Source: Methylococcales bacterium
Lineage (GTDB): Bacteria; Pseudomonadota; Gammaproteobacteria; JABHGC01
Length of the DNA stretch: 64,000 bases
NCBI GenBank assembly: GCA_018672285.1
Contig: JABHGC010000183.1
Coordinates: 133 to 64,132, forward strand
Direction of reading: 5' to 3'
Part shown: piece by piece, positions 22,409-23,864 of the stretch
Position numbering within the stretch: position 1 is the first letter of the stretch
Layout: each line of letters begins with the position of its first letter
The notes under the pieces: generated by a model
Told to the model about the DNA's origin: nothing
The model's database searches: none
Seen by the model: the letters and a program-made list of their open reading frames with translations, nothing else
Made by a program: the position numbers and the translations under genes

Positions 22409-22600
22409 ATGGGCGGCATTAGCATCTGGCAACTTCTGATTATTTTGGTAATAGTCCTGGTACTTTTTGGCACCAAAAGAATTCGTAATTTAGGCGGAGA
22501 CTTAGGTAGTGCCATCAAAAATTTCAAATCTTCCGTGAAAGATGAGGAAGACAAACCAAAATCCAACATCGAAAATAAAGACAAAAGCGATAACGCATAA
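22409..22600 (+). CDS. tatA: Twin-arginine translocase TatA
   Basis: [24 protein letters not shown]. Confidence 0.96.
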
Positions 22601-22609
22601 AGGCAACCC

Positions 22610-22909
22610 ATGTTTGATGTTGGCTTCTTTGAGTTATTGCTAATTGCTATCGTGGCGCTACTTGTCATCGGCCCTGAGCGAATGCCTGCCTTTGCTCGTA
22701 CTGCAGGCAAGTGGGTTGGACGCGCCAAACGTGCCGTGAACGATGTCAAAACCGAAATCAGCAAAGAAATAAAAGCCGATGAGCTTAAAGAGATCATCAA
22801 AAAACAAGCTCAAGTGCCCAATATCGAAGACATCATTGAATTTGATTACATTATTAAACCTCAACCTAAACTAGATAAAACCGATGAGCCAGACCAACCC
22901 AAACAGTGA
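22610..22909 (+). CDS. tatB: Twin-arginine translocase TatB
   Basis: [20 protein letters not shown]. Confidence 0.95.
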
Positions 22910-23864
22910 TGCATTACCTGAACAACCGATAATGTCTCACTTGCTCGAGTTGCGTAATCGAGTATTAAAAAGTGTTTTAGCCATCAGTTTAATTTTTTTA
23001 CCATTACTGCCCTTCTCCCAAGAGATTTTTACCTTTTTCGCCAAACCCATCATTGACTTGTTGCCAGAAGGCACCTCCATGGTGGCGATTGATGTGACCT
23101 CACCCTTCTTCACCCCGTTTAAACTGGTCATGGTTTTGGCTTTTTTTGTCTCAATTCCTTTTATATTGCACCAGATGTGGGGGTTTGTTGTACCCGCGTT
23201 GTATGCCCATGAAAAACGCTTAATCATGCCGCTGTTGGTCAGCAGCACGTTGCTTTTTTACTTAGGGGCACTGTTCGCATATTGGGTTGTTTTGCCCATT
23301 ATATTAACCTTCATGCAAGCCTTTACGCCTGATGGCGTGGCTATGGCACCGGATATTGCCCGTTATCTGGATTTTGTCCTCACCCTGTTTTTTGCTTTTG
23401 GCATTGCCTTTGAAGTCCCCATCGCCACAATCGTTGCGGTATGGAGTGGCATGACAACACCTACCGCGCTTAGAGAAAAACGCCCATTTGTGATTGTCGG
23501 TGCCTTCATCATTGGCATGTTGTTAACCCCACCAGATGTTGTTTCACAAACGTTACTCGCTGTACCGATGTGGCTGTTGTATGAACTGGGCATTATCTTT
23601 TCTCGTTTTTACATGAAAAAACCAGGTGAAGATGATGAACAAAATGACTACACCCCACCCACAGAAGATGAAGTGGATGCTGAGTTAAACGAAGGCAAAA
23701 CCTTTGAGACGACCGCTCAAACATCGGCTGAGAAAATTGAATTAGCCAAACAGTTCATTCAGCAAGAAGATTATGACAGTGCCAGAGTAATGCTTAATGA
23801 GGTACTAGAAGAAGGTACTGAGAGTGAGAAAGTATTGGCTAAGGCTTTGTTAGAGGTTATGTAA
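22884..23864 (+). CDS. tatC: TatC with C-terminal FimV_C-like domain
   Basis: [26 protein letters not shown]; extra acidic linker plus a 43-aa helical tail. Confidence 0.96.

Follow-up and report, generated by a model that had tools for sequence, protein, structure and literature searches.

FimV/HubP proteins locate the cell pole by means of their periplasmic LysM/Ig-like part and become spread along the membrane when this part is missing (PMC12918733, PMC7033161). Client proteins are believed to bind chiefly at the C-terminal FimV domain (PMC12918733). Polar anchoring is placed in the LysM part and client docking on the FimV domain (PMC12918733, PMC9061725, PMC7033161, bioRxiv 10.1101/116954). 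In Shewanella HubP, the FimV domain uses a negatively charged face to bind the GGDEF domain of PdeB on a positively charged face, and this binding activates PdeB (PMC9061725). [quoted passage not shown] The FimV domains of P. putida FimV and Shewanella HubP are not interchangeable, and deleting the domain causes only a minor swimming phenotype (PMC12918733). It follows that partner specificity is not transferable from the model organisms.

TatC, the subject of the locus described here, is normally seen as a bare membrane receptor. Its topology is N-in/C-in, so that a C-terminal tail lies in the cytoplasm. The additions to TatC that are covered by a 2026 review of Tat evolution are transmembrane only, namely the 10- and 14-TM forms of halophiles, and no cytoplasmic interaction domain is among them (PMC13673990). 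In the cryo-EM structure of Myxococcus xanthus TatBC (PDB 9E03), the TatC chain has 377 residues, beyond the usual 250.

We analyzed a stretch of 64,000 nucleotides from an uncultured marine Methylococcales bacterium (the window) in which a tatC gene continues into a FimV-like 3' end. The original prediction, made from the sequence alone, knew of no described TatC-FimV_C fusion. We likewise found no description of one in the literature searched on TatC together with FimV, where the matching papers name neither in title or abstract and mention TatC twice at most.

The fusion protein is a bona fide TatC

The window carries tatA, tatB, and tatC as a string that comes after hisA/hisF/hisE, with tatC third (Table 1). 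If the ATG at 22884 is used, tatB overlaps the start of tatC by 26 nt. A second in-frame ATG at 22932 (MSHLLELRN) is a candidate start that would yield a TatC of 310 aa and no overlap with tatB.

Table 1. Features of the tat locus, in positions of the window
Feature	Position	Strand	Description
tatA	22409..22600	+	ORF, 63 aa; PF02416 TatA_B_E match on identical gene
tatB	22610..22909	+	ORF, 99 aa; PF02416 match
tatC-fimV_C fusion gene	22884..23864	+	ORF, 326 aa plus stop
TatC core	22935..23567	+	aa 18-228 by Pfam PF00902; six TM helices
Acidic linker	23625..23729	+	aa 248-282, 35 aa; between last TatC helix and FimV_Cterm domain
Conserved acidic tail motif	23655..23690	+	aa 258-269; overlaps predicted short helix aa 261-274
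FimV_Cterm domain	23724..23858	+	aa 281-325; predicted TPR-like helix pair plus capping helix
Putative lipoprotein, 188 aa	23892..24458	+	ORF, lipoprotein-type signal; neighbor gene

Two TatC profiles match the fusion protein far above their cut-offs: PF00902, over aa 18-228, with 208.7 bits (cut-off 25.1) and TIGR00945 with 221.1 bits (cut-off 132.7). The AF2 model of the full-length protein has a pLDDT of 83.7, and Foldseek matches it to E. coli TatBC (9E01/9DZZ; E 3e-15, with 54% identity in the core) and to Aquifex TatC (4HTS/4B4A; E about 1e-9). Residues E22, F101, and E110 fall in invariant columns of the TatC alignment. We take them to be the counterparts of E15, F94, and E103 of E. coli TatC, which bind the signal peptide. 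A profile search of the genome returned the fusion protein as its single TatC match and no second tatC. We conclude that the fusion protein is a bona fide TatC: profile, fold, signal-peptide-binding residues, and the operon with tatA and tatB all fit.

Database records show precisely this 326-aa protein on 17 contigs. DNA was retrieved for nine of them, which come from different projects, samples, and assemblers, and the fusion ORF is identical at all 981 nt in these nine independently assembled contigs. The contigs compared include JGI 3300024243 and 3300024260, four assemblies from ENA (including two HAWL17 scaffolds), NCBI GCA_018661205.1, and Logan SRR7618777. Neither the window ORF nor the six-frame genome scan has an in-frame stop between the TatC core and the FimV-type tail.

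The putative lipoprotein ORF starts 27 nt 3' of tatC and adjoins it in every contig that reaches that far; no Pfam match is on record for the lipoprotein.

The tail matches the FimV C-terminal domain in profile and predicted fold

Beyond the last TatC helix, the original prediction had described an acidic linker followed by a FimV-like C-terminus, and the 326-aa ORF reads as it was quoted there. The tail (aa 248-326) comprises 79 aa, with 23 D/E versus 6 K/R residues. Model confidence is low to medium in the linker (pLDDT 53-72, and below 50 at aa 271-277). The FimV_Cterm domain that follows ends 2 residues short of the stop codon. That the tail sits on a cytoplasmic C-terminus, as had also been proposed, agrees with the established topology of TatC.

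We searched the protein with TIGR03504 (NCBIfam FimV_Cterm; 44 positions, curated cut-off 30.65 bits), the profile named in the original prediction. The whole protein passes the cut-off at aa 284-324 with 38.0 bits (E 1.3e-9), and the isolated tail passes it with 41.8 bits (E 8.3e-11). Scanned in six frames over its full 4.17 Mb, the genome gave only two matches to the same profile: a FimV encoded on contig C114, as a gene separate from tatC, with 66.9 bits, and the TatC tail with 42 bits. Since nothing in the genome but a true FimV and the TatC tail matches, a chance match is excluded. When the tail was compared by phmmer with all PDB chains, it matched 4MAL/4MBQ, annotated as "Motility protein FimV" (E 6.6e-6), and no other PDB chain fell below E 0.03.

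Structure prediction gave the same picture. AF2 places helices at 281-293, 297-310, and 313-325 with pLDDT values of 94-97, and this three-helix tail is confident whether the full-length protein or the tail alone is modeled. The top six Foldseek matches of the tail model in the PDB are all TPR3 of P. aeruginosa FimV, at 41-43% identity, with TMt values of 0.70-0.91 and an rmsd of 0.3-1.9 Å (mostly 0.3-0.5 Å). Because the domain is short, their E-values are only 0.008-0.018; those of the next matches, IpgC and designed TPRs, are about 50-fold worse. Judged by HMM, by sequence match in the PDB, and by predicted fold, we conclude that the TatC tail is a genuine FimV C-terminal domain.

The genome's own FimV, on C114 (2765-5893), has an open frame of 861 aa, LysM-type in its N-terminal part, with a single TM helix and a long acidic region. 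Its N-terminus is cut by the contig end. Long imperfect acidic repeats (…DLSGSDD.L.G.G.ID…) precede its FimV domain and are more HubP-like than P. aeruginosa FimV-like. The genome also encodes FlhF and PilQ, so that the usual polar-organelle genes are there. The fusion protein itself has no LysM or other periplasmic domain (TatC is its only Pfam match), and where FimV/HubP proteins have a single TM helix and a long acidic cytoplasmic region, it has six TM helices and a 35-aa linker. Short FimV-like proteins, in frames of 319-393 aa, occur in three class relatives with small genomes (L125 in G040, L131 in G028, and L128 in G007); they start with a signal or a LysM-like part, followed by a single TM helix, a short spacer, and the FimV domain. 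In the search set, G028 and G040 gave no TatC match at all.

TatC proteins with FimV-type tails recur among sulfur oxidizers

Is the fusion a peculiarity of one lineage? The GTDB order of the window holds three species genomes only, and the other two have a 253-aa TatC that ends just after the core. Tat function in close kin thus does not depend on the tail. Among 40 relatives at class level, no TatC gave a FimV-type match. A word-indexed search of 5.8 billion clusters with the window tail alone, a search of limited sensitivity, found only the tail's own protein. At that sensitivity, the window's tail type appears to be without close relatives in the 5.8 billion clusters and to belong to one species-level lineage.

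The architecture itself is another matter. Using aa 196-326 as the query in an exhaustive phmmer comparison with 1.84 billion representatives, we retrieved TatC proteins or fragments with long acidic tails. TIGR03504 matched the extreme C-terminus in all 10 tailed representatives that were scanned (22.7-38.5 bits), four of which exceed the cut-off. The tailed TatC proteins share the consensus KLxRVxxLRxxxDxxxARxLLYEVLxEGDExQxxVARNILxQLD. We then scanned one genome per species, from 185,579 species, with a pattern derived from 7 close tails, and confirmed this tail subtype at no fewer than 238 loci, each in its own species genome; the count is a lower bound for one subtype, as other subtypes would be missed. 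The best 80 of the 238 loci belong to Chromatiaceae, Sedimenticolaceae, Sedimenticola, Ca. Thiodiazotropha, and unclassified gammaproteobacterial MAGs, and include the complete genome CP037918.1. At 76 of these 80 loci the tail lies in one open frame with the TatC core; of the other four, three are cut by contig ends and one is a 70-aa fragment. Every one of the 83 database proteins retrieved with the subtype tail matches PF00902, and their source names say just "TatC." In two complete genomes with a related tail type, the tailed TatC is the sole TatC.

Hence, the idea of a one-off TatC-FimV_C fusion has to be corrected: the architecture is present in at least 238 other gammaproteobacterial species. 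On this sequence evidence, in no fewer than 238 species genomes of the sulfur-oxidizer clade, the normal form of TatC is one that ends in a FimV_C-type tail.

As the window's tail type comprises one species-level lineage, selection on the tail was measured in the Chromatiales clade only. Within the tailed sulfur-oxidizer clade, the core has a mean pairwise identity of 71%, compared with 61% for the FimV_C tail and 29% for the linker. A tail that is kept while its linker drifts argues that this class of tail is functional. By these identities, the tail of the sulfur-oxidizer clade is clearly a constrained domain on a drifting spacer.

Two tailed TatC proteins carry unexpected taxonomic labels. 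One (L059, JAIVTC010000237.1) comes from a MAG named "Candidatus Bathyarchaeota archaeon" and hardly differs from its counterpart in a gammaproteobacterial MAG (L055), the tree branch lengths of the two being 0 and 0.005. The other (L045, JAKISI010000029.1), labeled Ca. Polarisedimenticolaceae and read as Acidobacteriota by the tree tool, groups with a Sedimenticola MAG. Both placements look like bin contamination or label problems.

Part of the linker is also shared. A short acidic motif follows the pattern P-x-[ST]-[DE]-x-E-[MLV]-[DE]-A-E-L-[DN], typically PLSDEEMEAELDRIE; Chromatiales-type tails carry it in the form P[LM][ST][DE]EEMEAELD, and the window has a local form. Among 80 tailed TatC frames, 50 have the motif, as do 32 of 68 database representatives that bear a tail (the motif loci being the window, L004, L006, L008, L012, and most of L024-L103). 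Several untailed gammaproteobacterial TatC relatives, which have no FimV domain, carry it too. We know of no described function for it.

Origin of the window tail

Does the window tail descend from the tails of the sulfur oxidizers or from a canonical FimV? An HMM built from 30 genuine FimV domains of related genomes scored the window tail at 48.4 bits, against a mean of 86 for those domains. On an HMM built from 80 TatC-type tails, the window tail reached 30.1 bits, where the subfamily itself has a mean of 93.1 and genuine FimV domains one of 30.2 bits, so it is no nearer to the TatC-tail subfamily than FimV domains are. Its best identity, 44%, is to a real FimV domain, and its mean identity to TatC-type tails is 34%. 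The Chromatiales subfamily is marked by the signature LLYEVLxEG ... VARNILxQLD together with a high subfamily-HMM score, and the window tail has neither. HMM scores and best identities favor a canonical-FimV origin for the window tail.

Trees gave a less uniform answer. The domain tree unites the TatC-type tails in a clade with 100/100 support that does not include the window tail. An AU test nonetheless did not reject a sister position of the window tail to the Chromatiales tails (p 0.58). In the tree of TatC cores, the window lies outside the main tailed clade, on a long branch that is joined to another long branch. Untailed relatives nest among tailed TatC proteins in the same tree, which points to several gains or losses of tails. 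On the side of a shared origin stand this AU result, the long window branches in both trees, and the same order of parts, including the acidic motif. Taking scores and trees together, we judge an independent and a shared origin of the window tail and the Chromatiales tails to be about evenly balanced. A recent copy of the 3' end of the genome's own fimV was rejected as the source of the tail, as identity to it is only about 34-41%.

The tail as a proposed tethered docking module

How might a FimV domain serve a Tat receptor? In FimV/HubP, the pole is found by the LysM part and clients dock on the C-terminal domain; we therefore read the tail as a docking module and not as a pole-targeting signal. 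Our preferred reading, to which we assign a probability of about one half by analogy with FimV/HubP, is that the window tail may be a tethered docking module on the Tat receptor, a small copy of the FimV/HubP cytoplasmic arm. The TatC core, in which the residues that bind the signal peptide are intact, would work as a normal receptor. The cytoplasmic linker, which is flexible, strongly acidic, and marked by a short conserved helix motif, would be the spacer. The FimV-type domain at the end of TatC would provide the docking surface, anchored to the Tat receptor complex rather than to a LysM-anchored pole protein. Once docked, the tail would keep one specific cytoplasmic or membrane partner beside TatBC, or TatBC beside that partner, and several TatC copies per TatBC complex would make docking multivalent. 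The candidate partners would be the client classes that dock on FimV/HubP.

FlhF was considered as a partner of the FimV domain and rejected from the literature: its binding site on HubP is residues 860-1033, outside the TPR domain (PMC11236974).

Gene neighborhoods of tailed tatC, at 62 loci and in the window, offered no consistent partner candidate. At 31 of the 62 loci of the tailed clade (e.g., L030, 2331-4172), the next downstream gene on the same strand encodes an exported thioredoxin-like protein of roughly 610 aa. This protein, a conserved neighbor of tatC in that clade, has a CHWCH thioredoxin-like motif and by eye resembles the DUF255/YyaL type; the window is without it and has an unrelated lipoprotein instead.

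Alternative readings of the tail

A serious rival to the docking module is a role for the tail within the Tat pathway itself. The tail might gather the basic twin-arginine signal peptides ahead of export, offer a docking site to a substrate chaperone, or modulate how TatB or TatA binds on the cytoplasmic face, and the FimV fold would then be a generic small TPR. The charge of the tail, with its 23 acidic and 6 basic residues, is consistent with such a role. So is the acidic motif: it is found widely in the TatC tails of gammaproteobacteria, whether or not they have a FimV domain, and its occurrence where that domain is lacking hints at a Tat-intrinsic role for at least part of the tail. The fold matches that rank after FimV are TPR-type secretion chaperones, IpgC and SycD, but only at E >= 0.5. 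However, the domain scores above the curated FimV_Cterm cut-off and shares 41-44% identity with real FimV domains, a match far more specific than a generic TPR would give. Moreover, the 2026 Tat review shows no experimental link of TatC tails to substrate handling (PMC13673990). We consider this reading rather unlikely.

Perhaps the tail puts Tat at the pole? It could bind a protein that FimV/HubP holds there, or the cytoplasmic part of FimV, and so concentrate TatBC near the flagellum and the type IV pilus, where folded substrates would be exported. The genome does have FimV, FlhF, and PilQ, and the tail mirrors the FimV/HubP layout of an acidic spacer plus a FimV domain. Two studies reported E. 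coli TatBC complexes close to the poles (Berthelmann 2008; Rose 2013; both as cited in PMC13673990). Yet E. coli TatBC is reported there without any such tail. Furthermore, FimV/HubP proteins find the pole by their periplasmic LysM/Ig-like part and not by the C-terminal domain (PMC12918733, PMC7033161), and self-association of the FimV domain with FimV is not documented in the FimV/HubP literature that we searched. The original prediction, in which the tail may place Tat at the pole, is not supported as it stood, for the LysM part that anchors FimV/HubP is absent. By analogy with FimV/HubP, it is possible that the tail brings Tat to the pole, only by way of a partner that is already polar, and coupling to pilus or cAMP partners of the FimL/PilG kind is possible as well. 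As a whole, we regard a polar Tat as doubtful.

A passenger without function, that is, a fimV-like 3' end that was captured at the end of tatC and has simply persisted, is improbable. The tail type does occur in one species-level lineage only, and both order-level relatives are without a tail. Against this, the domain is about 34-44% identical to every FimV domain compared, the genome's own included, and it still passes the family cut-off with its core residues kept and a pLDDT of 95-97. A tail that has diverged and is nonetheless intact is unlike a neutral fragment of that age, in which decay is expected. The parallel Chromatiales tail type, moreover, is clearly under constraint.

An assembly or frameshift artefact that joined tatC to a separate small gene, the danger that the original prediction had raised, is very unlikely and hardly credible in view of nine contigs from different samples and assemblers that are identical over 981 nt, 17 contigs with the exact protein, and a fusion ORF without an in-frame stop.

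Implications and comparison with known systems

We conclude that tailed TatC is a recurrent and apparently undescribed variant of TatC, and that the form in the window is divergent and specific to its lineage. Hundreds of species whose only TatC ends in a folded, conserved docking domain would imply a new partner of the Tat receptor complex, and the 45-residue domain could be the bait for finding it. The use of the FimV domain is widened as well, since the module occurs outside LysM-anchored hub proteins. If the partner of the docking module is a client of the pole hub, this would be the first hard-wired link of Tat export to the organization of the cell pole.

A more far-reaching proposal is that FimV-type domains were added to the TatC C-terminus at least twice independently, once in the sulfur-oxidizer ancestor and once in this marine lineage, and that both additions plug Tat into the FimV/HubP client network. 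We offer it tentatively, as an outside chance. If it is true, Tat export would be sited at, or regulated from, a signaling hub at the cell pole; for example, a c-di-GMP enzyme or a FimL/PilG-type partner would dock on the translocon. Tat would then be a spatially or second-messenger-controlled machine in these bacteria.

How does the fusion protein compare with described proteins? It shares with E. coli TatC a core at 54% identity, the tatABC operon, and the signal-peptide-binding residues. Ordinary gammaproteobacterial TatC has about 250-260 aa, compared with 326 in the window, and the difference from ordinary TatC, such as that of E. coli or Aquifex, is an extra, predictedly folded accessory domain on the C-terminal tail. 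The tailed TatC proteins of Chromatiaceae, Sedimenticolaceae, and Ca. Thiodiazotropha (about 340-470 aa) have the same order of parts as the window: the core, an acidic linker with an EMEAELD-type motif, and a terminal FimV_C-type domain. In these Chromatiales-type proteins, however, the linker is far longer, and the tail region spans some 100-200 aa versus 79 in the window. Like the window tail, the C-terminal domain of FimV (TPR3 of P. aeruginosa FimV, 4MAL/4MBQ, and Vibrio and Shewanella HubP) sits at the extreme C-terminus, follows an acidic spacer, and has a three-helix fold. In FimV/HubP, that domain is carried by a hub protein built of LysM, TM, and acidic parts, whereas in the window it is carried by a six-helix TatC.
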